A stretch of DNA of 64,000 nucleotides from a virus (taxonomy: Duplodnaviria; Heunggongvirae; Uroviricota; Caudoviricetes), in IMG/VR virus record IMGVR_UViG_3300031963_000024, positions 69,753 to 133,752 of that record. One strand, written 5' to 3'. The position numbers were made by a program, and so were the translations under genes. Shown here piece after piece: positions 1,025 to 63,784 of this stretch. The notes below the pieces were generated by a model that made no database searches, had not been told where the DNA came from, and saw only the letters and a program-made list of their open reading frames with translations. The number at the start of each line of letters is the position of its first letter. Within the stretch, counting starts at the first letter, position 1.

Positions 1025-1025
1025 A

Positions 1026-9177: not shown

Positions 9178-9649
9178 ATTAAATGATATAAATTGGGGCG
9201 GTTCAGGAATTGAAAAATGTTTATACGATTTTTTAATTAATAAATTTCCTAAAGGAACTAAAATGTTAGAATTTGGTGGAGGTAAAGTATCAACAAATGT
9301 TTTTTCTAATTACTTTAATTTAACAACAGTTGAAGAAGATTTAGAATGGTTAAACATTTTTAAAAATAGGTACATTTATGCACCAATAAAAAATGATTGG
9401 TATGACAATGAAATATTATCTAAAGAATTAGATAATGATTATCAAGTTATTTTTGTTGATGGTCCATTAGGCGAAGGAAATCGTGTTGGATTATTAAATA
9501 ATTTAAATTTATTTAATGAAAATATTACTTGGGTTTTTCATGATACATACAGAGTATCTGAAAAAAATTTAGCGACTGAATTCTCTGAAAAAACAAACAA
9601 AAAAATAACGTTTTATTCTGAGTGTGATTATTGGGCAATTGTAGAATAA
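9170..9649 (+). CDS. Putative SAM-dependent methyltransferase
   Basis: MLEFGGGKVST (motif I-like), TTVEED (post I), FVDGP (motif IV-like). Confidence 0.35.
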   Translation: MIELNDINWGGSGIEKCLYDFLINKFPKGTKMLEFGGGKVSTNVFSNYFNLTTVEEDLEWLNIFKNRYIYAPIKNDWYDNEILSKELDNDYQVIFVDGPLGEGNRVGLLNNLNLFNENITWVFHDTYRVSEKNLATEFSEKTNKKITFYSECDYWAIVE

Positions 9650-9650
9650 T

Positions 9651-10217: not shown

Positions 10218-10247
10218 TTTTTAAAAAAAAATAATACTTTATATATA

Positions 10248-10994
10248 ATGGATAAAAAACCTAGAAGAACCCCTACAGTATCTGTAGAAGACTCAAACCA
10301 ACAACACAAATCAAAAAAAGAAATTATCGGTACTTTGATTAAGAAAAAAACAAAAGATAAATTTTTATCAGATAGTCAAAAAGAGTATTATGAAATATTA
10401 CAAAACAATCAGATAACAATTTGTTCAGGTCCTGCAGGTGTAGGTAAATCATATATTGCAATGAAAGCCGCAATTGATTTATTAGCCGACCCCAACAATT
10501 CTTACGAAAAATTAATTATTGTAAGACCCGCAGTTGAAGCCGAGGAAAAACTTGGTTCACTACCTGGGAATGTTGAAGAAAAATTAGACCCGTATATTTT
10601 TCCGTCTTACTATCTTTTAAATAAAATTATTGGAAAAGATGTTAGGGAAAAATTAAAAAATATGGAAATTATTGAAGTTTTCGCCTTGGCTTATATGAGA
10701 GGTATGAACATTGATAACTCAATTCTTATTTTTGAAGAAGCACAAAACTGTACACCAAAACAAATGAAACTTCTTTTAACAAGAATTGGTTTTAACAGTA
10801 AATTTTTTATATCTGGTGATTTAGAACAAACTGACCGATATAAGGACAAAACACATTCAGGACTATGGGACGCTTTAGAAAAGTTTAAAAACATTGATGA
10901 TATAGGAACTTTTACATTTAAAGATTCTGACATTGTTAGAAATGCGATAATTACAAAAATATTAAAAAAATACGAAGATGAAGTTCGCTTTTGA
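10248..10994 (+). CDS. phoH: PhoH-like ATPase
   Basis: Walker A motif CSGPAGVGKSYIA; PhoH signature RPAVEAEEKLGSLPG; Walker B motif ILIFEEAQN. Confidence 0.85.
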   Translation: MDKKPRRTPTVSVEDSNQQHKSKKEIIGTLIKKKTKDKFLSDSQKEYYEILQNNQITICSGPAGVGKSYIAMKAAIDLLADPNNSYEKLIIVRPAVEAEEKLGSLPGNVEEKLDPYIFPSYYLLNKIIGKDVREKLKNMEIIEVFALAYMRGMNIDNSILIFEEAQNCTPKQMKLLLTRIGFNSKFFISGDLEQTDRYKDKTHSGLWDALEKFKNIDDIGTFTFKDSDIVRNAIITKILKKYEDEVRF

Positions 10995-11589
10995 TACCGA
11001 TGAAGTTTTAAGAGACACAATCTCTAAAATGAAAGCTACTTATGAAAAGTTTTTTATTGAGGACTATGTTTCTGAAGAAGGTGAAGAAGAGTTTGAGTAT
11101 AAAATAATTGAACCAATTACTTCACACAAATTTTCAGAACATTTTTTATTCCCATCTGAAAGTGACTATATTAATTTTTTATACTTGGATTTCCCAATGA
11201 ATATTTTTGGTCACTCACCATCAATGTCGGCAAATACATTTAACACTTTTTCTGAAATTCAAAAAAATGTTTTATCTAAAAGAGACAAATTAAGTGTTAT
11301 AGGAATGGGTGTGGCAAAAATAAAACCAGCATCATTATTTTTTTACTCAAAATATGGTATGGAAGTAGACAACATACAATTTTACAATAAAAAAACCATC
11401 AAAAAAATATGGTCTAAATTTGATGTTATAGTTACAGCAAACCCAGATTTACTTGAAATTAAACCAAAAAACAAAACATCAATTAAAATAAACACGGATT
11501 ATAACCAAAACTATGAGTCTGATTATTCAATTGATTCTATTGAAGGTTTTACTTCGGTATATAATCAATTAAAATTAAAACATGCTTAA
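10978..11589 (+). CDS. Hypothetical protein
   Basis: ORF with a 17-nt overlap to phoH. Confidence 0.4.
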   Translation: MKFAFDTDEVLRDTISKMKATYEKFFIEDYVSEEGEEEFEYKIIEPITSHKFSEHFLFPSESDYINFLYLDFPMNIFGHSPSMSANTFNTFSEIQKNVLSKRDKLSVIGMGVAKIKPASLFFYSKYGMEVDNIQFYNKKTIKKIWSKFDVIVTANPDLLEIKPKNKTSIKINTDYNQNYESDYSIDSIEGFTSVYNQLKLKHA

Positions 11590-37721: not shown

Positions 37722-39806
37722 ATGATTGAATCACAAGACCAAAACGAAAAGATGGGTGGAAACCGAAAAGGTAAAACAGATACAATTAACTCCAAAACAC
37801 CTGTTTTGGACAATTTTTCTCGTGACCTTATTAAACTAGCAAAAGAAGGCAAACTTGACCCTGTAATTGGTAGGGAACATGAGATTGAAAGATTGGCACA
37901 GATTATTTCAAGAAGAAAGAAAAACAACCCTATTTTGATTGGTGAACCAGGTTGTGGTAAAACCGCAATTGTTGAAGGTTTAGCTATGAAAATATTTCAA
38001 GGAGACTGTCCTCAAAACTTAATTGATAAAAGAATTGTTAGTTTAGATATGACATCAATTGTTGCCGGTACAAAATATCGTGGACAGTTTGAAGAACGTA
38101 TTAAAGTAATACTTGATGAGTTGAGTGATAACCATGATGTTGTCATATTCATTGATGAAATTCACACAATCATTGGTGCTGGAAATTCATCAGGTTCGTT
38201 GGACGCTTCTAATATCTTTAAGCCAGCACTTGCTCGTGGTGAACTCCAGTGTATTGGTGCGACAACCTTAGATGAATACCGTGAACATATTGAAAAGGAT
38301 GGTGCGTTAGAGCGTCGTTTCCAAAAAGTACATGTTGATGCAACATCTATTGAGGACACAATTATAATTATGAATCGTGCCAAAGAAAACTACGAAAAAC
38401 ATCACAAGGTTCATTTTAGTAATGAAGTTATTAAAACTTGTGTAATGTTGGCGGACCGATACATCACTGACCGTGAGTTTCCTGATAAAGCAATTGATAT
38501 TATGGATGAGGTAGGTGCAAGATGTCAAATCAACGTAACCGTTCCTGAAATTATTGAAAAACTTAAAGAGGAAGCAAACCAAATTAAGGACCGTAAAGTT
38601 GAAGTTGTTAGAAGTCAAAAGTACGAAGAAGCTGCGGAATTACGAGATATGGAACGTAAAGTTTTAGCTCGTCTTCAAGAAGAAAAAGAGAAGTTTGAAA
38701 AAGACCGACTAACAAATAAAAAAGAAGTTACCGAAGAAATGGTTTATGAAGTTGTTTCCCAAATGACCAAAATCCCAATTTCAAAACTTTCACAATCAGA
38801 ATCAGATTCGTTAATTAATTTAGAAGAAAGTTTAACCAAAGCGGTTATTGGACAAGAAGATGCGGTATCTAAAATTTCAAAAGCAATCCGTAGGAATCGT
38901 GTAGGTATTAAAGACCCGAATAAACCAATTGGTTCATTTATTTTCTTGGGTTCAACAGGTATTGGTAAAACACATTTGGCTAAACAATTAGCCAAAGAAA
39001 TCTTTGGAAGTTCAGATGCTTTGATTCGTGTAGATATGTCTGAGTATCAAGAAAAATTTACAATGACAAGATTGGTTGGTTCGCCTCCAGGTTATGTTGG
39101 TCACCAAGAAGGTGGACAATTAACTGAACAAGTTAAAAACAAACCTTATTGTGTAATCTTGTTTGATGAAATTGAAAAGGCACACAAAGACGTTTATTCA
39201 CTTTTGCTACAAGCGATGGATGAGGGACATTTGACTGACGGTCTTGGTAGAAAAATCAACTTTAAAAATACCTTGATTATTATGACATCTAACATTGGTG
39301 CTAGAAAAGTACAAGACTTTGGTACTGGAGTTGGATTTGGAACTCGTTCTAAAAATGAAAAAGAAACTGAAATCAAACAAATGATGATTGAGGATGAACT
39401 TAAAAAGTTTTTTCCACCTGAATTTTTGAATCGTGTTGATGATGTTGTTTTCTTTAATTCATTAAAAGAAAATGAAATTAAACAAATTGTTACTTTGGAA
39501 ATTTCTAAATTAATTTTACGATTACGTTCTATGAACTATAACATTGTTATTGATGAAAGTTTGGTTAGTAGAATTTGTGAAGTTGGGTTTGATGAAAAAT
39601 TTGGGGCTCGTCCAATCAAAAGAGCTATCCAAAATCAAATTGAGGATTTTATCTCAGATGAGATTCTTAAGAAGAATATTGTTAATGATTCAGTATATAT
39701 ATTGGAGTTTGTTGATGACAAAGTTCGTATAAAAGAAAAAACATCAGAAATTACTGATGTTTCAGAAAAACCAAAAAGGGGTAGAACAAAAAAAGGGGTC
39801 AATTAA
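37722..39806 (+). CDS. ClpC/ClpB-like double-ring AAA+ unfoldase lacking Clp_N domain
   Basis: D1 module: [15 protein letters not shown], Walker [20 protein letters not shown]. Middle UVR motif [14 protein letters not shown] (ClpC-type). D2 module: [28 protein letters not shown], sensor [11 protein letters not shown] candidate VGF loop (GTGVGFGTR) is present. Confidence 0.85.
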
Positions 39807-42871: not shown

Positions 42872-43404
42872 ACAAATCACGGGTGACTCCCTTAATAGTT
42901 AAGGCTGACCTTAAGCATCTGACGCAAGTCTATACAGGGGGCGAAAGTGATTTTAATGTTCTTTGAAAATATGGGGGTGAAATAGAATCGATTGGCGTGG
43001 CTAGTCAATGGATGCACGTATGAGCTGAGTTAACTCATTAAAAACTGATTTAAAAAATTAAACGGCAACGTTTTGAACAAAATGGCAGCTATCGGTTTAA
43101 TCCGTGAAGATGCTTCTGTATTAGCTTAATTGTTAATACAACACAGGTCGGGAGACATATAACCTAGGAACAGAAGTCTTGAAAGATGTGGTTTCTATCT
43201 TAAAAGGAACAAACAGGGTGTAGGACATCCTTTAAGTTCTACCACCGTGGCTGAACGGTGTGAAAATTCAGATATTTTGGATTGTTAGAAAACAATAACC
43301 TAAACGTGTAGTATCTTTTGGTTGGGACGAACAAGACCGCAGGGCGGTACTGCGCACTTCCACTAAACAAATTAAAGTGGTCTAATTTGACCACTTTTTT
43401 TTTT
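42872..43404 (+). ncRNA. Large structured ncRNA candidate (~530 nt), unclassified
   Basis: No ORF of 60 aa or more on either strand over ~600 nt in an otherwise tightly packed genome. GC content is visibly higher than the flanks. Multiple local and long-range helices are present (AAATCAC...GTGATTT; CACCG-TGGCTGAA-CGGTG; CGCAG-GGCGGTA-CTGCG). It is bounded by an upstream promoter motif and a strong terminator. Confidence 0.5.
43376..43404 (+). terminator. Rho-independent terminator
   Basis: GTGGTC-TAATTT-GACCAC followed by T10. Confidence 0.75.
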
Positions 43405-44792: not shown

Positions 44793-44878
44793 GCTTGGGT
44801 GGCGGAATAGGTAGACGCGCTGGACTTAAAATCCAGTGAACAGTAATGTTCGTACGGGTTCGATTCCCGTCTCAAGTA
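44793..44878 (+). tRNA. tRNA-Leu (anticodon UAA), type II with long variable arm
   Basis: Acceptor GCTTGGG/CTCAAGT (two G.U pairs). D-arm GCGG-AATAGGTAGA-CGC. Anticodon arm CTGGA-CTTAAAA-TCCAG. Long variable arm. T-arm ACGGG-TTCGATT-CCCGT. Discriminator A. No encoded CCA. Confidence 0.8.
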
Positions 44879-44887
44879 CTAAAAGAA

Positions 44888-51963: not shown

Positions 51964-52359
51964 ATGAAAAATATATTTCTATCCCTATTATTGTTGTTAT
52001 CAACAAGTCTATTTGGTCAATACACGACCACACAAATCCGAACAAATACGGTATCAACATCAAAAATGATATTCAACTATCAAACTGATAAATGGGATTT
52101 TGTATCAAACAATGATTACACATCATTTGTTAGTGATTGGACTTTCAACATAACTGATGAAAACACAGGAATGATTTCAAATGGTGGTGTCAATTATGAT
52201 ATCTTATCATATTCAAAAGTTGATGATGCCGCTTACGTCAAAGTATTCAACACTAGAGCTCAAAGAGTCATGGAAATAGTTATAAGAAAAACTGAAAATG
52301 GTCTTGGTATTGTTGTATTTGATAAGGAACAAAGAATATCATATTATTTTTTCCCATGA
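51964..52359 (+). CDS. Hypothetical secreted protein
   Basis: N-terminal signal peptide MKNIFLSLLLLLSTSLFGQ. Confidence 0.4.
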   Translation: MKNIFLSLLLLLSTSLFGQYTTTQIRTNTVSTSKMIFNYQTDKWDFVSNNDYTSFVSDWTFNITDENTGMISNGGVNYDILSYSKVDDAAYVKVFNTRAQRVMEIVIRKTENGLGIVVFDKEQRISYYFFP

Positions 52360-52652
52360 GTTTTACAATAGATTTAGATGAATATGCCGAAGGTGCCATT
52401 TTGTTAGATGGACTTGAGGAGGCAATTATTGGAATTGTTGAGGAATTTGGAAATGGTAGACGAATCTTATATTCTAAACCAAAAATACTATCAATATTAT
52501 GTGAAAGAGATTTGATGACAATGGGTGAGGCCGAAGAATTTTACGATTATAACATTTTAGGTTTACATGCTGGTGAACAAAATGCGGTATTCCTTGATGT
52601 TGATGTGTCCGTAAAAAAAACAGGAGAAGGTTACAAGTATTTGGTTAGTTAA
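52356..52652 (+). CDS. Hypothetical protein
   Basis: ATGA-coupled ORF. Confidence 0.35.
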   Translation: MSFTIDLDEYAEGAILLDGLEEAIIGIVEEFGNGRRILYSKPKILSILCERDLMTMGEAEEFYDYNILGLHAGEQNAVFLDVDVSVKKTGEGYKYLVS

Positions 52653-52663
52653 AATTTTAATAC

Positions 52664-52671
52664 TATCTTTG
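52664..52671 (+). promoter_or_regulatory. Sigma-A-type -7 element (TATCTTTG), leaderless configuration
   Basis: ACTATCTTTGTGGTATG. The ATG at 52676 is about 5 nt after the motif. Confidence 0.5.
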
Positions 52672-52675
52672 TGGT

Positions 52676-53326
52676 ATGAAATTGATTTTAGAAAAAGGTC
52701 AGCAGTTATTTTTCACGAGTGATACACATTATTCTCACTCTAATATCTGCCGTGCAACAACTCGTTGGGCTGGTTCTGAAAACTTAACCCGTGATTTCAA
52801 GTCTCTTGACCACATGAATGACACATTGGTAAATAACATCAACGAAATGGTTGGTGAAAATGATGTTTTGATTCACTTAGGTGACTGGTCTTTTGGCGGG
52901 TTTGAACAAATTGAAGAGTTTCGTAACAGAATTTTATGTAAAAATGTTCACTTGGTTTATGGAAACCACGACCATCACATTCGTAGAAACAAAGAGAATG
53001 TTCAAAGTTTGTTCACATCAACTCAAGATTATATCCACTTGGATTTAAGAATCCCAAACGGAAAAGAAATGGACAAACTTTCAATTGTATGTATGCACTA
53101 CCCAATTGCAAGTTGGAACGGAATGAACGATGGTGTAATTCACTTACACGGTCACGTTCACTTACCTCCACACCTTAGAATTAACGATGGTAAGGCAATG
53201 GACGTGGGTGTTGATGGTAACAACTTGTATCCAATTAACATCAAAGAAATTCGTTCAATTATGAAAGACCGACCACACAAAAAATTGACATTACCTAAAG
53301 ACCATCACGAAAAAAGAATTGACTAA
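52676..53326 (+). CDS. Calcineurin-like metallophosphoesterase (candidate RNA 2',3'-cyclic/3'-phosphatase)
   Basis: MPE motifs: TSDTHYSH, LGDWSFGG, GNHDHH, MHYP, GHVH. Confidence 0.65.
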   Translation: MKLILEKGQQLFFTSDTHYSHSNICRATTRWAGSENLTRDFKSLDHMNDTLVNNINEMVGENDVLIHLGDWSFGGFEQIEEFRNRILCKNVHLVYGNHDHHIRRNKENVQSLFTSTQDYIHLDLRIPNGKEMDKLSIVCMHYPIASWNGMNDGVIHLHGHVHLPPHLRINDGKAMDVGVDGNNLYPINIKEIRSIMKDRPHKKLTLPKDHHEKRID

Positions 53327-53759
53327 TATGACAACTTATACATCAGCAGGAAAAAACCTTTATCTATTACGTGGAATACCAGGGGCTGGTAAATCCACCT
53401 TGGCAAAACAACTTGGTTGTACTCATTTTGAGACCGATAAATATTTTACGGATATTCATGGAAACTACAATTTTGATGGATTAAAATTAAAACAAGCACA
53501 TGAGTGGTGTCAATCTCAAGTTGAGATGGCAATGATTCAAAATCATATTACAAGTGGTTTGGATTCATCTGACATTGTTGTTTCCAACACATTTACACAA
53601 GAGTGGGAAATGAAACATTACTATGATTTGGCAAGTCAATATGGGTATAAGGTATTCAGTATAATTGTGGAAAACAGGCATGGTGGTGTTAATGAACACG
53701 GAGTACCTGAGGACAAATTACAGGCAATGAAAGACCGATTTGAAGTTAAATTAGTTTAA
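53319..53759 (+). CDS. P-loop kinase, T4 polynucleotide-kinase-like
   Basis: Walker A motif GIPGAGKSTLAKQL is similar to the T4 Pnk GCPGSGKST. 146 aa. The start overlaps the MPE gene by 8 nt. Confidence 0.55.
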   Translation: MTNMTTYTSAGKNLYLLRGIPGAGKSTLAKQLGCTHFETDKYFTDIHGNYNFDGLKLKQAHEWCQSQVEMAMIQNHITSGLDSSDIVVSNTFTQEWEMKHYYDLASQYGYKVFSIIVENRHGGVNEHGVPEDKLQAMKDRFEVKLV

Positions 53760-53775
53760 TAAAAATAACTATTTA

Positions 53776-53807
53776 AAATCCCCATCAAAAGTGGGGATTT
53801 TTTTTAC
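53776..53807 (+). terminator. Rho-independent terminator
   Basis: AAAATCCCCAT-CAAAAG-TGGGGATTTTTTTT. Confidence 0.7.
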
Positions 53808-53853
53808 ACTCAGAATACCTTTTTGTACATAATATTGTCTATACTTATAAGAT

Positions 53854-56800
53854 ATGAAAAAATTATTACTTTTAATGATGTTCTTGTTCAGTTTTTTAAC
53901 TGTTCAGGCAACCCACATGATGGGTGCAGATGTTTCCTACAAATGTTTAGGAAATGGAAAGTACAAAATAATTGCTAAAGTTTACCGAGATTGTAGAGGT
54001 GTGTCTATGGGTACACCGTCATTTGGCACTTATGCAGGATTAAATGGTGGAAATGGATGTGGTAGTTACACATTAAGTGGACTATCAAGGGTTTCAATTA
54101 AAGACGTAACAACAAGATGTTCAACAAGTAGTAATCCATGTGGTACCGCAAATTCCGCCTTTGCGAATAAAGGTGTTGAAGAACACACATTTGAAGCCAC
54201 GATTGATTTTAATACGTCACCATTAAACAATTTTGTAAATAAATCAACATGTTGTGAGGTTACATTTTATGTGAATGAGTGCTGTAGAAATGGTGGTATT
54301 ACAACAGGACAGTCAAATCAAAACTTTTACGCCACGGCAATGGTTAACATTTGTAACCTTCAAAAAATGAAGAACAAGTGTAACAGTTCACCACAATTAT
54401 CTAACCCACCTATTGCCTTTTTATGTTGTAATCAACCTTGGTATTACAATAATGGTGCGACTGACACAATAGATTATGATTCAATTTCATATAAGTTAGT
54501 AAATGGGCTTCAGGGTATTCCTAACAGTTCAGTTTCATATTCATCACCATTTACTGCTAGAGTGCCTATGACACCGTATTGTGTACCACCAACGACAATT
54601 AACTGTACACCAAACCCAAAAACAAACCCACCAAGAGGTTTTTATTTTGATACAACAAATGGTGATATTATTACAACACCAACCAAATGTGATGAATCTG
54701 CGGTTATATGTGTTGAACAAACTGAATGGAGAAAAGACACGTCTGGTGTATGGCGTGTAATTGGTAGAACAAGACGTGACATGCAGGTATGGGTTAGGGA
54801 TGATTGTGGATATAACAAAGCACCGACTTTGGGTCCCAAGTTTACTTACAAAGTATGTGAGGGTGAAACTTTGAAGTTTAAGGTTGAATCTGATGATGAA
54901 ACTTTTACACCATATCAGACAACTCCTGATACAACAACAATGAAATGGAACAACGGTATTCCTGGCGCGAAGTTTACATTGGCGAATAAGAGTGATTGGC
55001 CAGAAAAAAGAAAGTCTTACGCAAACTTTGAATGGACACCGCCAATTGGTTCGGCTTCTGATATATCATATTCATTTACAGTTACCGTTAGTGACGAACA
55101 CTGTGAACCACCAGCAACATCAATTCGTTCATTTAAGATTAAGGTAAATCCAAAACCTACATCAAAACGTAGATATACCCAATTAAAATGTGGAAGGTTC
55201 GCCATGGAAGCGTATGAGTTATATGCCGCAACAAGTTATTCATGGAGTGTTAGAGATACTTTGGCGAACGAGTTATTTTACTCTTCAAAGAAAACCGATA
55301 CCATGAATTACTATTATGAAGGTAAGTATATTATCATTCATAAATTAACAAGTGCCCAATCATGTGTTACGATTTATAGTGATACCGTTTATTTAACCCA
55401 ACCACCAAAAGTTGTATTGGCAGATGCTGATAGTTTTGCTTGTAAAGAAACTACATTTACATTGAAGGCTAAAGTAATTGCTGGTAAACCTACTTTGAAA
55501 TACAAATGGAATAATGGTGATACCACCGATTTCACAACGATTAAAAACTTCAAATCTGATTCAACGTTGATGTTGGAAGTAACTGATGGTGATGGTTGTA
55601 AGTTCCGTGATACCACATTAACATTTGTTAAACCACTACCTGTTATTACTTTCGGTTCAGATAAGGTTATCTGTACGTATGAAACTAATACATTTGATGG
55701 TCAAAACAATGACACGGTAAAATACTTGTGGAGTACGGGTGATACAACTCGTTACATGACAACAAACCTAAAAGGTAGTTATTGGGTTAGAATTACTGAT
55801 ACGACATATCAGTGTGTGAAGTATGACACGGCAATACTTGTTGTGAATGATACTGTCATATCTAATGCTGGACCTAACCAATCAATATGTGATAAAGATA
55901 CATTCACCTTGACTGCCAATCATAAACCAACATCATTGACTCCTACATATACTTGGGGTGGATTAGGGAATTTATCAACCTATAAGTTAAAATCTGATAT
56001 TACAAAGTTAACTTATATGTTTACATTGAAGACGGTGTTGACTCAAAACGGGCACACTTGTGAAGATATGGATACAATTTTTGTAAGGGTTAAACCATTA
56101 CCAAAAATTGGTTGGGACCCAAAACCATTGAAACCTCAATGTTATTCTTATGGTAGTGTATGGATGGAACCATTCTTGGTTAAACCTCATAACTTTGGAA
56201 CATATGAAATATGGAGCGGAAACAAAAATAAAATAGGAAACATTGTTACGAATCCATCTAACGGAAGGTTCCTATTCAACACAATATCAGTAGATAATAG
56301 TAAATTACAAGGAGGTAATAACTTTACTACAAAAGTTTATGTTAAGTTTAACGATACAAATGGTTGTTCAAACATGGATTCAACAACACAAACAATATAT
56401 GGTACACCCATTATCCAATTAAGAAAGGCGACAGTATGTCAAGATATTGGGTCAATGATGATGGACAATTTGAGAGTAAGACCAGCAACCAAAAATGGTG
56501 TGAACATGTTATGGGAAGTTGTTAGAGCACCTAATGGTGTGGACACATCTAAACTACTTTATAATATTTCTACGAACTCAATTCCAAACATTAGATTTAA
56601 CTTTGGTGCACCTTCACAGGATTATTACAAAGGTTTGTACACTTTCAAACTTACCGTTAAAGATTTAATTACGGGTTGTCAAAGTACCGACACTGTTGAT
56701 GTAAATATCATTACAGAACCTAAAGTTGAATTGACAACCATACCTCTTTATTGTGAAAATTCAGGTGTGAGTATTAATTTATTTGATTACATTTTGGTGG

Positions 56801-58389
56801 ATGGTGTTAAACCTACTCAAGGTACCATCTTTATTCAGGATAGGAATGGTGATAGAAATGACCCTAAAGTATCTACAGATATATCAACAGGTATATTCAA
56901 AACTAGTATAGGTGTAGGTAATTATAACATTAAGTTTGTAAGTAACCTTATAGCTCCTGACCATTCAGTTACTTGTTCAAGAGTGGATAGTTTTGATGTG
57001 ATTATTAGTTATAAACCTGACCTGAAAGTAATAGGTATGGGTTTTTGTTCAACATATCCTTGGCCATATGAATTGAAAAATGTAATAACCGATGGTAGTT
57101 GGGGTGTGACAAAAATCACTTACCCTGATGGGGGACTTTTTACACCAACACCGAAGGCTAAAGGATATATCGGAGGTTTTAATAATCCTTACAAACTTAT
57201 GATGGTTGGTGAAAGTCAATATGGTTGTAAAGATACTGAGATATTAAAACTAACAGTAATGAACCAACCTGAAATTAAGTTTGTTCCACCATTTGTGAGT
57301 TGTGGTAAAGATACTTGGACTCTAAAATTAGACACTGCAAACATTGACTCCGCAGTTAAATTCAGATGGGTAGTTAATACTAATCTTTATGATACTCTAA
57401 CACCTCCTGGTGGTCAAATGATTGGTAACAAAAGAGGTTTTGGTAAAAAACAATACGTACCATCTGATAATGATACTGCAAGAGGATACTTTACGGTTAA
57501 ATTCAAATCTTGGGACGCACCACTTTGTGCTAGAGTAATTGACAGTGTCAAGATTTTAATCACACCTTATCCTGAACCTGACTTCACCACAACAAATGGA
57601 TGTCAACCACATTTTTCAACATTCACACCGACTGAAAAACGCGGAATTAAATCAATTGAGTATTCGTGGGTTGTAAATGATACATTCTTACTAAGAGATA
57701 ATTTTAGTTGGTCAAAAACTTTTAATAACTTTGGTTATTATAGAACATCATTAACAGCGGTTAATAACACGTTCTTTCCTGAAAAGATATGTGGAACATC
57801 TATAACAAAAACATTTGAAGTTTATCCAAAACCAAGTGTTGTGTTTACTACTGACCCATTGTACAAAACAACGGTGGCATTACCTAAGTTTAAAACTATT
57901 AATACATCAAGTGTTAGTCAGAATCCATTTGTGACTAATATGAAGTACAATTGGACTTGGGGTAAATTATTTAAGATTGGTAGTGATACATTTAAGAATT
58001 CAAACATTGTATTTGGTAAAGATACGGGAACTTATTGGATTAAGTTAGTTGTTACAACAGATAAAGGATGTAAAGACTCAACAATTAGTAGAGTACTAAT
58101 TGGGCCTGACATAATTGTGTTTGTTCCTGACGCTTTCACACCTGACAATGCAGGTCCAAATGAAAACAATACATTCAAACCATTCGTTATTAATAATAAA
58201 ACATACGAAATGTTAATCTTTAACCGTTGGGGAGAAAAAATGTTTGAAACAACTGACCTTTCAAAAGGATGGGATGGAAACTATTTGGGTAAACCAGCAC
58301 CCGATGGTGTATATGTGTATAAGATGATTGTAACTTCATTGGAAGATAAGGTTTTCCAATATAATGGAACTTTTACATTATTAAGATAA
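53854..58389 (+). CDS. SprB-repeat adhesin-like protein with signal peptide and T9SS type-B (gliding motility-associated) C-terminal sorting domain
   Basis: Signal peptide MKKLLLLMMFLFSFLTVQA. Cys-rich N-terminal domain. Several degenerate SprB-like repeats (KYKWNNGDTTDFTTIKNFKSDSTLMLEVTDGDGCKF; KYLWSTGDTTRYMTTNLKGSYWVRITDTTYQCVKY; KYNWTWGK...TYWIKLVVTTDKGCKD). C-terminal 90 aa VPDAFTPDNAGPNENNTFKPF...IFNRWGEKMFETTDLSKGWDGNYLGKPAPDGVYVYKMIV matches the TIGR04131/CHU_C T9SS CTD-B consensus. Confidence 0.8.
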   Translation: MKKLLLLMMFLFSFLTVQATHMMGADVSYKCLGNGKYKIIAKVYRDCRGVSMGTPSFGTYAGLNGGNGCGSYTLSGLSRVSIKDVTTRCSTSSNPCGTANSAFANKGVEEHTFEATIDFNTSPLNNFVNKSTCCEVTFYVNECCRNGGITTGQSNQNFYATAMVNICNLQKMKNKCNSSPQLSNPPIAFLCCNQPWYYNNGATDTIDYDSISYKLVNGLQGIPNSSVSYSSPFTARVPMTPYCVPPTTINCTPNPKTNPPRGFYFDTTNGDIITTPTKCDESAVICVEQTEWRKDTSGVWRVIGRTRRDMQVWVRDDCGYNKAPTLGPKFTYKVCEGETLKFKVESDDETFTPYQTTPDTTTMKWNNGIPGAKFTLANKSDWPEKRKSYANFEWTPPIGSASDISYSFTVTVSDEHCEPPATSIRSFKIKVNPKPTSKRRYTQLKCGRFAMEAYELYAATSYSWSVRDTLANELFYSSKKTDTMNYYYEGKYIIIHKLTSAQSCVTIYSDTVYLTQPPKVVLADADSFACKETTFTLKAKVIAGKPTLKYKWNNGDTTDFTTIKNFKSDSTLMLEVTDGDGCKFRDTTLTFVKPLPVITFGSDKVICTYETNTFDGQNNDTVKYLWSTGDTTRYMTTNLKGSYWVRITDTTYQCVKYDTAILVVNDTVISNAGPNQSICDKDTFTLTANHKPTSLTPTYTWGGLGNLSTYKLKSDITKLTYMFTLKTVLTQNGHTCEDMDTIFVRVKPLPKIGWDPKPLKPQCYSYGSVWMEPFLVKPHNFGTYEIWSGNKNKIGNIVTNPSNGRFLFNTISVDNSKLQGGNNFTTKVYVKFNDTNGCSNMDSTTQTIYGTPIIQLRKATVCQDIGSMMMDNLRVRPATKNGVNMLWEVVRAPNGVDTSKLLYNISTNSIPNIRFNFGAPSQDYYKGLYTFKLTVKDLITGCQSTDTVDVNIITEPKVELTTIPLYCENSGVSINLFDYILVDGVKPTQGTIFIQDRNGDRNDPKVSTDISTGIFKTSIGVGNYNIKFVSNLIAPDHSVTCSRVDSFDVIISYKPDLKVIGMGFCSTYPWPYELKNVITDGSWGVTKITYPDGGLFTPTPKAKGYIGGFNNPYKLMMVGESQYGCKDTEILKLTVMNQPEIKFVPPFVSCGKDTWTLKLDTANIDSAVKFRWVVNTNLYDTLTPPGGQMIGNKRGFGKKQYVPSDNDTARGYFTVKFKSWDAPLCARVIDSVKILITPYPEPDFTTTNGCQPHFSTFTPTEKRGIKSIEYSWVVNDTFLLRDNFSWSKTFNNFGYYRTSLTAVNNTFFPEKICGTSITKTFEVYPKPSVVFTTDPLYKTTVALPKFKTINTSSVSQNPFVTNMKYNWTWGKLFKIGSDTFKNSNIVFGKDTGTYWIKLVVTTDKGCKDSTISRVLIGPDIIVFVPDAFTPDNAGPNENNTFKPFVINNKTYEMLIFNRWGEKMFETTDLSKGWDGNYLGKPAPDGVYVYKMIVTSLEDKVFQYNGTFTLLR

Positions 58390-58390
58390 T

Positions 58391-58597
58391 ATGAAGCTAC
58401 ATAAAATAATTTTGGCATGTATTTTATTAGTAGGGTGTGAAAAAGAACCAATACAAATAAACCCACCTAAAATTTTAAATAATTACCAAAATGAAGTTAA
58501 AACAATTTCTAAACCTAATTCAAAAAAGCGTAAATTGGGTAAAAGAACATTCCGTATTCCAAAAATTCTAAAAACAAAAACTAAAAACTATTTATAA
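58391..58597 (+). CDS. Small basic lipoprotein
   Basis: Lipobox ILLVGC followed by EKEPI. 68 aa, K/R-rich. Confidence 0.45.
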   Translation: MKLHKIILACILLVGCEKEPIQINPPKILNNYQNEVKTISKPNSKKRKLGKRTFRIPKILKTKTKNYL

Positions 58598-58607
58598 ATA
58601 AAAAAAC

Positions 58608-59333
58608 ATGAAAAAAATAATATTATCGCTCGTTTTAGTTGGTATGATTGGTTTTATGGGTTGTGAAAAAGAACCTATACCAACACCAAACCCAACAGTT
58701 AATCTTTTGGTAGATGAAGAACCAAACGCTGTAGTAGATTCTATGGGTACCGTTATCTTTGATAACCCAATGACATCTGACATAACACCAACAACTGATG
58801 CAACAATAATGGATTATCCATTATTTTTGGATTACGACCCATTTACAATGGTTACATCAAGAACTGGTAAAATTGATTCTTGTGTAAAAGGTATTGAAGT
58901 TACAAAGGCCGAAAAAGAACTTTTAACTAAGGCTCATTTAAATAAAGTTGAATGTCAAAAACAAAACAAAATAATTGTTGCAAGAATTAATAGAGAAATT
59001 GAAGGTTGGGCTAAAACACAAAAATATAATTATTATGTAAATTGGTATATGGTTGAAAAATCAAAATTAGATTATGATTTAAAAATGGGTGTAATAACTG
59101 AATCCCAATATAAAGAAAAACTTACCACTTTAGAAAAAACATGGAAAAGTAAAATGTCCTATTTAAATAATCAGGTAAAAGAAAAAATCAAAACAAGTTT
59201 GGATAGAGCAACTGCGTGTGGTAAAATAAAAGATTGTGAAAAGGAGTATCTACATAAGGTGTTAGATATACTTGGTAAATCAAGATATAAGAAATGGATG
59301 GAGTGTCACAAACATAACTACAAAAAGAAATAA
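58608..59333 (+). CDS. Lipoprotein, paralogous N-terminus to preceding gene
   Basis: Lipobox GFMGC followed by the same EKEPIP motif. 241 aa. TATAAATA lies about 8 nt upstream. Confidence 0.5.
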   Translation: MKKIILSLVLVGMIGFMGCEKEPIPTPNPTVNLLVDEEPNAVVDSMGTVIFDNPMTSDITPTTDATIMDYPLFLDYDPFTMVTSRTGKIDSCVKGIEVTKAEKELLTKAHLNKVECQKQNKIIVARINREIEGWAKTQKYNYYVNWYMVEKSKLDYDLKMGVITESQYKEKLTTLEKTWKSKMSYLNNQVKEKIKTSLDRATACGKIKDCEKEYLHKVLDILGKSRYKKWMECHKHNYKKK

Positions 59334-59337
59334 AAAT

Positions 59338-59371
59338 AAGACCCAAGATTTGATTATCTTGGGTTTTTTTA
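59338..59371 (+). terminator. Rho-independent terminator
   Basis: AAGACCCAAGAT-TTGATT-ATCTTGGGTTTTTTT. Confidence 0.75.
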
Positions 59372-59384
59372 TTATTATGCGGTT

Positions 59385-60065
59385 ATGAAAAAAAATATAA
59401 TAGGAATTATCCTTTTAATTATTCTAATAATTTTAAGTTTTATAGGTATTAGTTCAACCCTATATTCAAAACCCAATTTACCAAATGATACAATCATTGT
59501 AATACCAAAAGTTCAAGATACCGTTGTTAATATTAACGGAAAATATGGAACTTTTATTGGTGATTCACACACATCAAATCATAATTCAGGATGGCAAGTT
59601 GTTGTTTGTAAAAAAACAGGTCTAAGAATGAATAATCTATCAGTTTCAGGTAAGACAACAGGTTGGATGCTTGAAACCGCAAAAACATCACTACATAAGG
59701 GTATTGATTATTGTTTTGTTTATGGTGGTGCCAACGATATGTTCACAAAATCAATAACACCTAAACGAGCAGTTTCTAATATTCAACAAATTGTTGACTT
59801 ATGTCATACATATAACATTCGTTGTGTGGTTTTAACAGGTTTTGACCCTGTTAAATGTACAAGGACATCAAATCCCGCTTATGGTCCAAGATACGCTCAG
59901 TTTCAAAAAATGTTAATGGATTCAATATCAGGTGCAACTGTTGTTGATACACGTGTAATTGATAGAACAGGATGTTGGGACGAATTATGTCATATGAACC
60001 CTGAAGGTCACAAAAAAATTGGAATGAAAGTAATTCATGACATGAAATTTCATATTATCAGATAA
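59385..60065 (+). CDS. SGNH/GDSL hydrolase (esterase) with N-terminal membrane anchor
   Basis: N-terminal TM helix IIGIILLIILIILSFIGI. Block I GTFIGDSHT (GDSx). Block III YGGANDM (GxND). Block V DELCHMNPEGH (DxxH). Confidence 0.65.
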   Translation: MKKNIIGIILLIILIILSFIGISSTLYSKPNLPNDTIIVIPKVQDTVVNINGKYGTFIGDSHTSNHNSGWQVVVCKKTGLRMNNLSVSGKTTGWMLETAKTSLHKGIDYCFVYGGANDMFTKSITPKRAVSNIQQIVDLCHTYNIRCVVLTGFDPVKCTRTSNPAYGPRYAQFQKMLMDSISGATVVDTRVIDRTGCWDELCHMNPEGHKKIGMKVIHDMKFHIIR

Positions 60066-60071
60066 TTTTAT

Positions 60072-60079
60072 TATCTTTG
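60072..60079 (+). promoter_or_regulatory. Sigma-A-type -7 element (TATCTTTGTAT), leaderless configuration
   Basis: TTTATTATCTTTGTATTGTG. The CDS appears to start at a GTG at 60084. Confidence 0.5.
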
Positions 60080-60083
60080 TATT

Positions 60084-61115
60084 GTGTTACCTAAATTAAA
60101 CAAATATCACAATGATGGACTGTTATATAAACAGACACATCCTACATTACCGTTAACCATATGGAATTATACACCAGCGGTTCAATACGGTGAAAAGTGG
60201 GATGAAGTAACTTTACAGTGCCGTGGTTTAGTGACTGGTACTGAAGGTAATGTAGTTGCAAGACCATTTAAAAAATTCTTCAACATAGAAGAAAACAAAC
60301 ACACACCTACCCAAGATTTTGAGGTATTTGATAAGATGGATGGTTCATTGGGAATCATATTCAAGTACAATGGTGAAATGATATGTGCCACTCGTGGTTC
60401 TTTTACCTCAGACCAATCAAAGTGGATGAGTGAGTTCGCTCAAAAGTACAATTACCAAGACATCATAGTTGAAGGGTTCACTTATTTGTTTGAAATCATC
60501 TACCCTGAAAATAGAATAGTTGTTAATTATGATGGTCAAGAAAGATTGGTATTGTTAGGTATCATCAATACTGAGACAGGTGAAGAACTTCCACACAATG
60601 AGTTGTTTGAAGGGTTTGACGTTGTCAAAAAATACGATGGAGTTCGGGATTATTCCGAATTAAAGGGTAAAGTTGAGCAAAACTCTGAAGGATTTGTTGT
60701 TCGTTTTTCTAACGGAGACCGAATGAAAATTAAAGGTGAGGAATATCTACGACTTCATAAGATAATGACAAATGTATCAACCACTGGTGTTTGGGAATTG
60801 TTATCTAATGGTGGCGACATCAATGAGTTCTTAAAGGACGTACCTGATGAATTTTATAAGAAAGTAAAAGATTATGCGGATTTATTGAAGTATGGGTTTT
60901 ACCGAGTATCTGAAGATTGTGGAAAGGCACACTATTACTTCAGATATGGAAAATATAGTGATAAAGAAATTGAACCAACTAAAAAACAGTTCGCAGAACA
61001 TGTTATGAATCATGGACATCCACCATACAGAGCGGTGATGTTCGCCATGTGGGATGGAAAACCTTATGATAAATTGATATGGAACATAATAAAACCAGAA
61101 TGGAAGAAACTGTAA
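60084..61115 (+). CDS. RNA ligase, T4 Rnl1 family
   Basis: LQCRGLVTGTEGNVVARPFKKFFNIEENKH...VFDKMDGSLGIIFKYNGEMICATRGSF aligns with T4 RnlA [31 protein letters not shown]...[25 protein letters not shown]. This covers motif I (KxDGS) and the KS.GS block. The start is inferred as a GTG. Confidence 0.75.
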   Translation: MLPKLNKYHNDGLLYKQTHPTLPLTIWNYTPAVQYGEKWDEVTLQCRGLVTGTEGNVVARPFKKFFNIEENKHTPTQDFEVFDKMDGSLGIIFKYNGEMICATRGSFTSDQSKWMSEFAQKYNYQDIIVEGFTYLFEIIYPENRIVVNYDGQERLVLLGIINTETGEELPHNELFEGFDVVKKYDGVRDYSELKGKVEQNSEGFVVRFSNGDRMKIKGEEYLRLHKIMTNVSTTGVWELLSNGGDINEFLKDVPDEFYKKVKDYADLLKYGFYRVSEDCGKAHYYFRYGKYSDKEIEPTKKQFAEHVMNHGHPPYRAVMFAMWDGKPYDKLIWNIIKPEWKKL

Positions 61116-61312
61116 CCCGTGAAGAAATGGTTTCATTGGTCAAATCACGTGGATGGTATTCTATGTGGAATGAAAACAATTGGAATAGTCCTGAGACTGA
61201 TAATTTAGATTGGGGTGGGCGGTCTTTGAAAGCCGCCTACCAACAATGTCTTGATGATATTGAAATGGAAGAACGAGTTAAACAAGGAAAAACAATAAAA
61301 ATTAAAATATAA
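61079..61312 (+). CDS. Hypothetical small protein
   Basis: 77-aa ORF overlapping the ligase 3' end by 37 nt. Confidence 0.3.
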   Translation: MEHNKTRMEETVTREEMVSLVKSRGWYSMWNENNWNSPETDNLDWGGRSLKAAYQQCLDDIEMEERVKQGKTIKIKI

Positions 61313-61316
61313 AGTT

Positions 61317-61586
61317 ATGCCAGATTTTAGTACGGAAATCGACATTGATGTTGATGAATTTTGGGATGAATGCTCAAGAAGTGAAAAAAAAGAGTTAATC
61401 GACCTTTTGGTTGAGGAAGGACATGTTACAAGAGTTCCTAACAGTAGTATCAATGATGAAATTCAAAAACCGTCTTTGATAGAAATTGAGTGGAATGATA
61501 TGATTGATAAATTATCTTTATTAAGACAGAGATTGTCAATTGAAGAGGAAGATACCATAAAGGCTCTGGTTGAAAAATACTCATGA
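61317..61586 (+). CDS. Hypothetical small acidic protein
   Basis: 89-aa ORF. Confidence 0.35.
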   Translation: MPDFSTEIDIDVDEFWDECSRSEKKELIDLLVEEGHVTRVPNSSINDEIQKPSLIEIEWNDMIDKLSLLRQRLSIEEEDTIKALVEKYS

Positions 61587-61960
61587 AAAACAAAAAAATC
61601 TACTACTCATCTAAAAATGAAAAACACGAAATTTTAGAAATTTATTGGATAAAAAATAAATTTATTAATAAAGGATATCATGAGCTAACTGTTAACCTTA
61701 ATGGTGCACATCACTCATATGATATAAATGATTTAAATAGATATACAATCAATTCTATTGCAGGTGCTTATATTAAGAATATAACTCTTGGTTTCAAATG
61801 GGTTCGTGATGATGATTTTATGGATAGATTCATTCAAACACTAACACCAATTGTTGAGGAATTTAAAAAAGACGTTGAATATCATCATTCAATTGATGGT
61901 TGGATTGGAAGAGTTTTTATTGAACCTATTGAAAACCTTGTTGATTGGTTAAAAAAATAA
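61583..61960 (+). CDS. Hypothetical protein
   Basis: ATGA-coupled, 125 aa. Confidence 0.35.
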   Translation: MKNKKIYYSSKNEKHEILEIYWIKNKFINKGYHELTVNLNGAHHSYDINDLNRYTINSIAGAYIKNITLGFKWVRDDDFMDRFIQTLTPIVEEFKKDVEYHHSIDGWIGRVFIEPIENLVDWLKK

Positions 61961-61975
61961 AACTATATTTAAAAC

Positions 61976-62233
61976 ATGTTTAACAAATTTTATAAATTAG
62001 ATTTTGGACTACAAATGATTATCACTTGTCTTGTCCTATTTTTTTCAAACCAACTTGTGTCATACACATTGAGTATGGCTAACGTTCCTAGTACAGTATC
62101 ATTTAACGTGGGTGTTGTACTAACATTTATATTGTTTTTACTCCAAACAATATCAATTTATCTTGGAGCAATGGGAATTATTAACTACATAAAACAAACA
62201 AAAACAAAAAATAAAGATGAGCAATCTAACTAA
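61976..62233 (+). CDS. Small two-TM membrane protein with charged C-terminus (holin-like topology)
   Basis: Two hydrophobic helices followed by a KQTKTKNKDEQSN tail. Topology only; no homology claimed. Confidence 0.3.
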   Translation: MFNKFYKLDFGLQMIITCLVLFFSNQLVSYTLSMANVPSTVSFNVGVVLTFILFLLQTISIYLGAMGIINYIKQTKTKNKDEQSN

Positions 62234-63129: not shown

Positions 63130-63306
63130 ATGGAACTACTATATATTGTATTCGGCATGTGGATTGGGGTAATTTTTACTTATTTCCAATGGTACAGACC
63201 AATGGCACAAAAAATTGAAGACCTTGAAGAAGGTATGAAAGATTGTATTAAATCAGGATTAAATGGACCAATAAATTACGGTTCAATAGAAAAAGACATG
63301 GACTAA
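63130..63306 (+). CDS. Small membrane protein (58 aa), not in the supplied ORF track
   Basis: MELLYIVFGMWIGVIFTYFQWYRP... One TM helix. Sits between the promoter motif and the CYTH gene. Confidence 0.35.
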   Translation: MELLYIVFGMWIGVIFTYFQWYRPMAQKIEDLEEGMKDCIKSGLNGPINYGSIEKDMD

Positions 63307-63322: not shown

Positions 63323-63784
63323 ATGATAACATTTCAGGAAATTGAACGTAAATTTTTATTGAAGAGATTCCCACGTCTCGCCAAAATCAATACTGTATAC
63401 CAAATTGAACAATGGTATCATGCCGATGGTTTTAGATATAGATATCAAGTTGAAATTCCTACAGGTGAAATCCATATTTTTAAAACCAAAAAAACAAATA
63501 TTTCCAAAGGTATTAATACTGAGGAAGAAACAACTTTAACATCTGAGGAGTTCCAACAACTTGATTTGGCAAATTCACTTCATATTAAAAAAACCCGAAC
63601 TGTTGTAAAACATAAGGGTCATAAATTGGAAATTGACAAATATGAAGGTTTAAATATTGTCATCATGGAGATTGAACTTGGTGATATTAATGAAAAATAT
63701 TCATTACCGAAATATATTGAAAAAGAAGTCCTTTATGAAGTAACGGGTATAAAAGAATTTAGTAATAAAAATTTAGCGGAATGA
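63323..63784 (+). CDS. CYTH-domain protein (triphosphate tunnel metalloenzyme; CyaB/ThTPase-like)
   Basis: N-terminal EIERKFLL (ExExK signature). Length 153 aa. Later acidic motifs (MEIEL). Confidence 0.6.
   Translation: MITFQEIERKFLLKRFPRLAKINTVYQIEQWYHADGFRYRYQVEIPTGEIHIFKTKKTNISKGINTEEETTLTSEEFQQLDLANSLHIKKTRTVVKHKGHKLEIDKYEGLNIVIMEIELGDINEKYSLPKYIEKEVLYEVTGIKEFSNKNLAE

Follow-up and report, generated by a model that had tools for sequence, protein, structure and literature searches.

Defences that cleave tRNA or other RNA are common, among them PrrC, RloC, retron- and PARIS-type effectors, Cas13 and OLD-family tRNases, and to our knowledge the pair of T4 Pnkp and Rnl1 is the only experimentally established phage repair answer to them. 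The heal-and-seal logic is that of T4 Pnkp and Rnl1, of bacterial Pnkp/Hen1 and of Pnkp1-Rnl-Hen1 (PMC3592404, PMC3675462, PMC4411300). The Pnkp of Clostridium thermocellum is a fusion of kinase, metallophosphoesterase and ligase, and Capnocytophaga has a Pnkp1-Rnl-Hen1 complex (PMC3675462, PMC4411300). For phages, the jumbo-phage survey by Iyer et al. (2021) reported that the occurrence of polynucleotide kinases and of phosphoesterases follows that of Rnl1 and Rnl2 ligases and of the tRNA sets of phages (PMC7824862, section 3.4.9) and that a few jumbo phages use calcineurin-like enzymes for the phosphoesterase step (PMC7824862). The present study concerns a set of genes in a stretch of 64,000 nucleotides (nt) from a Caudoviricetes genome (IMG/VR record IMGVR_UViG_3300031963_000024, positions 69,753 to 133,752), referred to below as the window, which encodes a metallophosphoesterase (MPE), a small P-loop kinase and a T4 Rnl1-family RNA ligase (Table 1).

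From its sequence we judge it probable, if by no means certain, that these three proteins form a heal-and-seal pathway by which the phage repairs breaks in RNA, most likely in tRNA. An annotation made earlier from the letters of the window (the original prediction) had proposed such a kit, with end healing split between the MPE and a Pnk-like kinase and with an additional HAD phosphatase. The three open reading frames (ORFs) were found where it had placed them, on the + strand, and the profile searches it had suggested were run and matched Metallophos, AAA_33 and RNA_lig_T4_1. The split kit is upheld by the ligase residues, the fold of the kinase and the co-occurrence of the genes across phages, whereas the HAD component and the homology to Pnkp had to be given up. 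A repair role has strong support in the case of the ligase and good support in that of the kinase; for the MPE it is a matter of association only, and for the HAD protein it is unsupported.

Relatives of the window and sampling

The window holds part of a large genome of a Flavobacterium-type phage, encodes a major head protein and a terminase, and has a G+C content of about 31%. A megablast search of positions 52000-62000 against GenBank phages gave no near-identical DNA, and relatives were therefore sought through the proteins. The closest cultured relative is the Flavobacterium phage immuto, with an MPE identity of 70%, and synteny with the window is shown by metagenomic contigs that reach 226 kb in length, L022 being the closest among them (numbers of this kind denote individual loci). 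To sample the gene neighbourhood, homologues of the kinase with 57-70% identity were used as anchors, which gave 80 IMG/VR loci that fall into 42 clusters at 80% identity; the six-frame ORFs of these loci were searched with iterated hidden Markov models. The loci come from related phages, and counts among them are not independent events.

The Rnl1-type ligase

The ligase matches Pfam RNA_lig_T4_1 (PF09511) at 8.8e-20, with 72 bits against a cutoff of 28.3, and phrog_562 at 1.4e-73, where profile positions 20-365 of 377 correspond to query residues 10-341. The T4 Rnl1 structures 2c5u, 9do4 and 5tt6 are matched at about 1e-19, and the pairwise alignment with T4 Rnl1 ends at query residue 265. 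The C-terminal helical domain on which the tRNA specificity of T4 Rnl1 depends may have a counterpart here. With the NCBIfam equivalog TIGR02308 ('T4 RnlA family') the protein reaches 85.5 bits, as opposed to a cutoff of 242. With a score above the Pfam cutoff and below that of TIGR02308, the ligase is regarded as a member of the family and not as a close T4 equivalog.

The active site was compared in an alignment of 46 sequences, consisting of the window protein, 44 homologues from related loci and T4 Rnl1. The T4 sequence used has the expected length of 374 amino acids (aa), and the residues considered are those for which published mutational analyses indicate an essential role in T4 Rnl1. 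The ligase motifs quoted in the original prediction are present, namely CRG at residues 46-48, KFFN at 64-67 and K-DGS at 84-88, and so is the adenylylation lysine, K84, corresponding to T4 K99. Motif I (K84-M-D86-G87) aligns with K99-E-D101-G102 of T4, the lysine being invariant in all 46 sequences. Further identities to T4 are found in the nucleotidyl-transferase motifs III, IV and V, at E137 (E159), E202-G203 (E227-G228), K215 (K240) and K217 (K242), and at the Rnl1-specific residues R47 (R54), K64 (K75) and F66 (F77); K119 of T4, likewise Rnl1-specific, is conservatively replaced by R104. The residues taken here as essential in T4 Rnl1 are all kept in this way, and sealing activity is predicted.

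The stand-alone kinase

The kinase frame is open from 53319 to 53759 and opens at a TTG; the original prediction had given an overlap of 8 nt with the MPE gene. A TAA-T-ATG junction between the two genes is kept in the window, L022, L008, L011 and L013, and the kinase therefore likely starts at the ATG, 1 nt past the MPE stop; the overlap, which needs the start at TTG 53319, is probably an artefact of picking the first TTG. The ORF matches Pfam AAA_33 (9e-12), phrog_2071 (2.9e-38) and phrog_505 'polynucleotide kinase' (6e-9), and in NCBIfam only a trivial match was obtained. Its homologues are mostly 134-135 aa long, and some of them are already labelled 'polynucleotide kinase' in GenBank.

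Both the P-loop GxxGxGK(S/T) and the Pnk-type fold are present. Invariant residues, in a comparison spanning homologues from Flavobacterium-type, Pseudomonas, Aeromonas, E. coli and Vibrio phages (29 sequences for D37), are K22 and T24 of the P-loop, where S23 is nearly so, D37, S86-N87-T88 and R117-H118. A search of PDB sequences with the single kinase sequence gave no match and a family profile was required; with this profile, T4 Pnk was the best full-length match, followed by Pnkp1 and CthPnk, these three giving the longest matches, and D37 was aligned to the general base D35 of T4 (D38 of Cth). Structure comparison also places the kinase closest in fold to T4 Pnk, the top matches being polynucleotide and tRNA kinases. 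The invariant stretch E115-N116-R117-H118, followed by 'VP', resembles by eye the 'KRGTKAVP' of T4 with its lid arginine (R122/R126), a contact of the NTP phosphates, in a region that lies beyond the end of the profile alignment.

The metallophosphoesterase

The MPE is of the calcineurin type and matches Pfam Metallophos at 3.4e-7, exceeding the cutoff, and phrog_547 'phosphoesterase' at 1.6e-42, and it has no match in NCBIfam. The motifs for a binuclear metal site are invariant (D16-x-H18, G69-D70, G96-N97-H98-D99, H141 and G159-H160-x-H162); such metal-binding motifs place the protein in the superfamily only. The original prediction had the MPE act as in bacterial Pnkp, and this homology was not borne out: a GDxxDR motif II with the phosphate-binding arginine and a close structural likeness to the Pnkp and lambda phosphatases were both looked for in the MPE and not found, nor does fusion connect it to the kinase (see below). 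In sequence and in structure, its best match is Aquifex aq_1665 (PDB 1xm7), and the structural neighbours that follow, LpxH, MJ0936 and YfcE, are small-molecule phosphodiesterases and pyrophosphatases. The MPE thus placed shares its superfamily with the Pnkp phosphatase and stands outside the Pnkp clade.

Linkage of the three genes across phages

The case that the three genes act together draws mainly on their neighbourhood. An MPE lies within 10 kb of the kinase in 54 of the 80 loci, and the distance between the two is usually short: 49 of the 55 MPE copies are found within 1.1 kb of the kinase, compared with about 11% expected under uniform placement, and 33 of the 55 within 300 nt. An RNA ligase is present in 46 loci (32 Rnl1, 19 Rnl2-like), and 36 have both MPE and ligase. 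When the loci are collapsed to the 42 kinase clusters, the MPE is adjacent in 25, a ligase lies within 3 kb in 24, and both apply in 16. Twelve gene orders were counted, for example M-K-L1, L1-M-K, K-M-L2 and K-L2 (M, MPE; K, kinase; L1 and L2, Rnl1 and Rnl2-like ligase). Because the orders are shuffled and the ligase families interchange, we regard the linkage as functional rather than inherited, despite the non-independence of the loci. The kit is modular, in that the kinase-MPE pair joins an Rnl1 or an Rnl2-like ligase, often beside tRNA arrays: tRNA genes occur in 14 of the kinase loci, several of them as arrays of 13-23, and an array of 14 tRNAs in L023 leads straight into the kinase gene, which is followed by Rnl1.

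The variety of arrangements is best seen in individual phages. In the Aeromonas phage phiA047, MPE, Rnl1 and kinase are three consecutive genes in this order, and the Pseudomonas phage Amme-3 has the order HD-MPE-x-x-Rnl1-kinase. The E. coli Vequintavirus ECML-10 carries a kinase-MPE pair 3.5 kb from a tRNA cluster, annotated as 'AAA family ATPase' and 'metallophosphoesterase', and a 311-aa Rnl1-family ORF (hmmsearch 1.5e-77), which is divergent from the pair, lies unannotated in an annotation gap. L008 and L004 are close relatives of the window phage. In L008, a second, Rnl2-like ligase is found in addition to an Rnl1-58aa-kinase arrangement (the 58-aa gene is described below). The Rnl2-like ligase of L004 is of the Pfam RNA_ligase/PHA02142 type and is immediately followed by a gene for a Thg1-like 3'-5' nucleotidyl-transferase; Thg1-like enzymes are known for the repair of tRNA 5' ends. 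Neither an Rnl2-like ligase nor a Thg1-like gene was found when both were sought in the window. In Vibrio phage 1.170.O the kinase is followed by an ORF of 169 aa, which was considered as an MPE and found not to be one.

Kinase-MPE or kinase-ligase fusions were not seen in about 100 loci. Among the PHROG families, phrog_8238, a fused 'RNA ligase' family of 737 aa, matches all three window proteins, the kinase with profile positions 2-109, the MPE with 195-252 and the ligase with 435-676, and this order of kinase, MPE and ligase is the domain order of bacterial Pnkp.

Transcription of the locus

The motif TATCTTTG fits TAnnTTTG, the Bacteroidetes -7 promoter consensus, and occurs 13 times compared with 4.4 expected, a number that none of 100 shuffles reached. 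In addition to the boxes at the MPE and the ligase, it is found ahead of the tRNA-Leu gene and of several other genes. The arrangement TAnnTTTG-N4-ATG before the MPE is kept in L011, L013, L016, L020 and L022 despite diverged flanks, the motif-N4-start arrangement before the ligase is kept in L011, L013 and L020 (ATG) and in L022 (GTG), and the ligase of L008 and L010 has an in-frame ATG 4 nt past the -7 motif. Since this geometry is maintained amid diverged flanks, leaderless or near-leaderless transcripts are supported, and the two leaderless genes of the original prediction can be identified as those of the MPE and the ligase. For the MPE-kinase transcript a leaderless or near-leaderless form is predicted.

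No promoter of its own was found for the kinase, and the gene is followed by a hairpin with a U run, so that MPE and kinase are regarded as one discrete transcription unit. The hairpin (53775-53801) folds with a free energy (dG) of -14.1 kcal/mol and a z-score of -4.66, and none of 200 shuffles folds as well. The common promoter type claimed for all three genes accordingly holds for MPE and ligase, each with its box 4 nt from the start, and not for the kinase, which is co-transcribed with the MPE. A sigma-70 promoter scan was uninformative for a phage of the Bacteroidetes type (84 sites vs 62 expected), and the terminator scan coupled to it overlooked the hairpin at 53775.

The interval between kinase and ligase contains a gene for a CHU_C/PKD protein of 1511 aa and one for a GDSL hydrolase, along with small ORFs of the lipoprotein-like kind; the original prediction had put the ligase after an adhesin cassette, and surface-protein genes do lie between the two. 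Homologues of the 1511-aa protein are found in L022 (85% identity), there at the same position, in L008 (62%) and, as a C-terminal match, in L004. The gene is missing at this position in L011-L020, where the gap between kinase and ligase is only about 2.8 kb, and it is therefore considered an accessory cassette within a conserved MPE-kinase...GDSL-ligase backbone. Neither the 1511-aa protein nor any of ten flanking ORFs matched a family when scanned against PHROG. A phage gene that makes use of the type IX secretion system of the host, as this one would, is unusual.

Proposed pathway and alternative explanations

In the proposed pathway, a ribonuclease of the host or of a competitor would cut RNA by transesterification and leave one end with a 2',3'-cyclic phosphate and one with a 5'-OH. 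The MPE would remove the cyclic phosphate or 3'-phosphate to give a 3'-OH, a step to which the gene neighbourhood alone points. The kinase would phosphorylate the 5'-OH, with D37 as the general base and the P-loop holding the nucleoside triphosphate, as suggested by fold, conserved residues and neighbourhood. The ligase, in which the essential residues are present, would follow the chemistry established for its family, being adenylylated on K84, passing AMP to the 5'-phosphate and sealing the break. The healing genes would be expressed as one leaderless unit that begins with the promoter box at 52664 and is closed by the terminator at 53775, and the ligase from a second promoter of the same host-type class, and the TAA-T-ATG junction suggests that the translation of MPE and kinase may be coupled. 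An early time of expression, tRNA-Leu(UAA) as the target and an anticodon nuclease in the host belong to speculation. For the kinase and the ligase taken by themselves, a role as an RNA repair pair is, by our own estimate, quite likely.

Several points weigh against the three-protein pathway. The loci counted are not phylogenetically independent, and the AlphaFold2 (AF2) models were built on shallow alignments (predicted local distance difference test, pLDDT, 79 and 74). The top PHROG family of the kinase carries only the label 'ATPase', and the arginine at the third position after the aspartate (T4 R38, Cth R41), which binds the phosphate of the acceptor, is absent, the window protein having F40 and the family alignment no arginine throughout; the invariant R15 or R117 might stand in for it. 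The ligase of the window is 6.3 kb away from the kinase and separately transcribed. The nearest solved structure to the MPE is aq_1665, and a literature search for aq_1665 or 1XM7 yielded nothing on the function of the protein. The MPE gene of immuto directly follows four tRNA genes, and the 69 kb examined around it contain neither a kinase nor a ligase gene; that of Cellulophaga phage phi17:2 sits amid DNA polymerase, primase and methylase genes, without a kinase or ligase nearby. Because of these differing contexts, a role of the MPE in healing RNA 3' ends is argued from association and not from homology.

These points bear most on an explanation in which only kinase and ligase repair RNA and the MPE hydrolyses nucleotides or cyclic-nucleotide signals or processes DNA ends, which we consider unlikely and yet the most serious of the alternatives. 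The 3' end would then be healed by the HAD protein at 2276, by the product of a gene outside the window or by a host enzyme, or it would need no healing. Such a role would suit an enzyme of the uncharacterised aq_1665 clade, whose next neighbours LpxH, MJ0936 and YfcE act on small molecules and whose relatives occur without kinase and ligase among the replication genes of phi17:2 and in immuto. Moreover, an MPE is missing within reach in 26 of the 80 kinase loci, 10 of which keep a ligase, and for phage calcineurin-like phosphodiesterases a role in breaking down signalling nucleotides has been proposed (PMC7824862). What speaks for a shared function instead is the close spacing of the pair, since the 49 of 55 MPE copies within 1.1 kb lie on either side of the kinase and often abut or overlap it, and phages of the Flavobacterium type as well as those of E. 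coli, Aeromonas and Pseudomonas show the pairing again. In the window itself, MPE and kinase have a common promoter, a common terminator and a coupled stop/start, and the HAD alternative lacks contextual support.

It is far less probable that the three genes are unrelated, with the ligase as a tail-fibre attachment factor, the kinase as a small-molecule (nucleotide or NAD) kinase, the MPE as a generic phosphatase and their proximity as a by-product of the organisation of phage early regions. Tail-fibre attachment is a second activity of T4 gp63, and phrog_562 is labelled 'RNA ligase and tail fiber protein attachment catalyst'; the nucleotidyl-transferase active site, however, is fully kept in all 46 ligase sequences, and a purely structural role is disfavoured because it would not need such conservation. 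AvrRxo1 (an NAD kinase) and gluconate and APS kinases are among the weaker matches of the kinase, and the kinase of Amme-3 is followed by NAD-salvage-type genes, but the top structural matches are polynucleotide and tRNA kinases, and the kinase is found together with ligases of two different RNA ligase families, joined in one lineage by a Thg1-like gene. The 6.3 kb of surface-protein genes between kinase and ligase in the window would agree with unrelated genes, whereas the many shuffled orders elsewhere speak against merely inherited synteny. The least probable explanation, that the kit acts on DNA or RNA-DNA hybrids and cleans 3'-phosphate/5'-OH nicks from host nucleases before sealing, can draw on the use of both DNA and RNA substrates by T4 Pnk and CthPnk, on the MPE family member amid replication genes in one phage and on a DNA ligase upstream of the Amme-3 cluster, but the co-occurring sealing enzymes are always of RNA ligase families (Rnl1 or the Pfam RNA_ligase/PHA02142 type) and the modules repeatedly lie beside tRNA arrays, in one lineage with a Thg1-like gene.

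Returning to RNA repair, a broader form of the proposal can be put forward, for which we see about an even chance: the MPE of the aq_1665/cd07390 clade and the Pnk-like kinase of about 135 aa would constitute an uncharacterised two-protein RNA end-healing unit, widespread in phages and interchangeable in its ligase, possibly with a CYTH-like protein and a membrane peptide of 58 aa as partners. The phages concerned are rV5-like coliphages and phages of Aeromonas, Pseudomonas, Vibrio, Campylobacter and the Flavobacterium type.

Accessory candidates and further features of the window

Two small genes downstream of the ligase may belong to the module. The hydrophobic 58-aa protein gave no match in a family search, and homologues of it lie between Rnl1 and kinase in L008 (7823-7999; 71% identity) and between MPE and kinase in L013 (10651-10803) and L020 (38%), which suggests that it may travel with the repair module. 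In the window and in L022, its gene precedes that of a CYTH/triphosphate-tunnel-like protein. The N-terminal EIERK of the latter fits the ExExK signature, and it matches phrog_6660 at 1.3e-16 and no PDB sequence. In L011-L016 and L020 the CYTH-like gene comes directly after the ligase gene and overlaps its 3' end, and in the window and L022 a 2.2-kb block that includes an SPFH/Band-7 gene parts the two. The protein may be a ligase accessory or a fourth repair component.

Table 1. Positions of the features discussed, in the window unless another sequence is named.
Feature	Position	Strand	Description
-7 promoter box TATCTTTG	52664..52671	+	4 nt 5' of the MPE ATG
MPE	52676..53326	+	216 aa, stand-alone, aq_1665/cd07390 clade; candidate RNA 2',3'-cyclic-phosphate / 3'-phosphate end-healing enzyme
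Kinase	53328..53759	+	143 aa, minimal stand-alone polynucleotide 5'-kinase-like P-loop protein; candidate RNA 5'-OH kinase
Intrinsic terminator	53775..53805	+	11-bp hairpin and U run; closes the MPE-kinase unit
1511-aa protein	53854-58389	+	Signal-peptide-like N-terminus, PKD-like repeats, C-terminal CHU_C type IX secretion sorting domain
Second -7 box TATCTTTG	60072..60079	+	4 nt 5' of the ligase GTG
RNA ligase	60084..61115	+	343 aa, GTG start, T4 Rnl1-family, ATP-dependent; predicted end-sealing enzyme
Small hydrophobic protein	63130..63306	+	58 aa, one N-terminal hydrophobic helix; own TATCTTTG box at 63113
CYTH/triphosphate-tunnel-like protein	63323..63784	+	153 aa; Pfam CYTH 2.6e-4, 21.3 bits vs cutoff 23.2
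tRNA-Leu(UAA)	44793-44879		ARAGORN and Rfam
tmRNA	42973-43365	+	Rfam RF00023, 53.6 bits vs gathering score 47
HAD-fold protein	2276-2698	+	Small, stand-alone; D31-I-D33-G-T35 motif (DxDxT), generic to the HAD superfamily
CYTH-like genes in relatives	L011 15399-15872; L013 15044-15517; L020 14240-14713		
ECML-10 Rnl1 ORF	L017 2968-3903 = OL631479.1 ~67095-68030	-	hmmsearch
Rnl2-like ligase and Thg1-like gene	L004 (ENA metagenome scaffold) 9348-11236		Ligase ~1 kb 3' of the kinase, three small ORFs between

The tRNA-Leu(UAA) gene, which had been placed about 8 kb away and described as carrying its own promoter, does have TATCTTTG 14 nt ahead of it and lies 7.8 kb upstream of the MPE. The tmRNA gene is situated 1.4 kb upstream of it, and a TATCTTTG promoter box at 42860 precedes the tmRNA gene by about 105 nt; the Rfam match is full-length, including the 5' GGGGGUGA and 3' CCAC(U)A ends, and the gene was not reported by ARAGORN. 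The two RNA genes form a small block related to translation rescue.

The HAD-fold protein was dropped as a repair component of the original prediction. With Pfam HAD_PNKP it reaches 19.8 bits, under the cutoff of 27.6, and LNS2 scores higher; in the PDB an LNS2 domain, 1xpj and a 'capsule biosynthesis protein' were matched, and T4 Pnk was not. Weak PHROG matches to 'polynucleotide kinase' families are secondary to phrog_1238, and no homologue was found near a kinase in the roughly 100 loci examined. With neither specific PNK similarity nor a kinase or ligase context, the protein was rejected as the 3' phosphatase. Its stop overlaps the start of a gene for a fused GT2/GT4 glycosyltransferase of 546 aa. 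Genes for a second glycosyltransferase, a PolB-exonuclease-like protein and a dUTPase lie further upstream, and the region (window 2-4338) has the look of a module for glycans or sugar phosphates and not of one for RNA repair.

Two further observations were made. A 694-aa protein at 37722-39806 (+) in the window matches phrog_4871 'ATP-dependent protease' with an E-value of about 1e-241, and our guess is that it is a phage AAA+ protease of the FtsH or Lon kind. In Amme-3 (L002 4405-7118), ribose-phosphate pyrophosphokinase-like and nicotinamide phosphoribosyltransferase-like genes lie directly 3' of the Rnl1-kinase genes, a pairing that appears to resemble recently described phage NAD+ reconstitution pathways.

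Significance and comparison with known systems

If the proposed pathway is correct, RNA repair would be a widespread and modular phage counter-defence and tRNA repair far commoner than the T4 paradigm suggests. The orphan aq_1665/cd07390 phosphoesterase family, which stems from structural genomics, would gain its first function, and a very small polynucleotide kinase without one canonical substrate-binding arginine would be defined. As the trio is present in rV5-like coliphages, a tractable group that includes ECML-10, direct genetic testing in E. coli is possible.

The set resembles that of T4, where Pnkp (pseT) and Rnl1 (gp63) heal ends that carry a 2',3'-cyclic phosphate or a 5'-OH and then seal them, in that the window ligase belongs to the same family and has the essential residues, and the kinase has the T4 Pnk fold, the P-loop and the general-base aspartate. 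The T4 kinase, however, is fused to a HAD (DxDxT) 3'-phosphatase, whereas the kinase of the window is a stand-alone protein of 143 aa beside a binuclear MPE; it also lacks an equivalent of R38, and the ligase scores far under the RnlA equivalog cutoff. T4 counters the anticodon nuclease PrrC, whereas a cognate host nuclease for the window set is hypothetical. Another parallel is offered by Rhodothermus phage RM378, which has a Pnk kinase fused to an HD-family phosphohydrolase together with an Rnl1, Runella HD-Pnk being comparable. Like the window, this is a phage of a Bacteroidota-related host with an Rnl1-type ligase, a Pnk kinase and a 3' phosphoesterase that is not of the HAD type, which shows the phosphatase module to be interchangeable, with the difference that its HD phosphoesterase is fused to the kinase and the MPE of the window is separate.

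With bacterial Pnkp the set shares the three chemistries, namely a P-loop 5' kinase, a 2',3' phosphatase of the metallophosphoesterase superfamily and an ATP-dependent ligase, and in Pnkp1-Rnl the ligase is already a separate polypeptide. In contrast to bacterial Pnkp, the window has three separate polypeptides and a ligase of the Rnl1 and not of the Pnkp (Rnl4) type, and the neighbourhoods that were examined showed no methyltransferase of the Hen1 kind. The concept as such is anticipated, since the survey of jumbo phages (PMC7824862) and the 'polynucleotide kinase' labels in GenBank precede this work. The survey does not give the anatomy, clade or biochemistry of the calcineurin-like enzyme, and our analysis goes beyond it in finding the kinase-MPE pair to be common, tightly linked and present also in non-jumbo rV5-like coliphages. 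The specific kinase-MPE pairing, its breadth and its anatomy are what is new here, and the predicted pathway would differ from the known ones in its separate polypeptides, its uncharacterised phosphoesterase clade and its minimal kinase without one canonical arginine.

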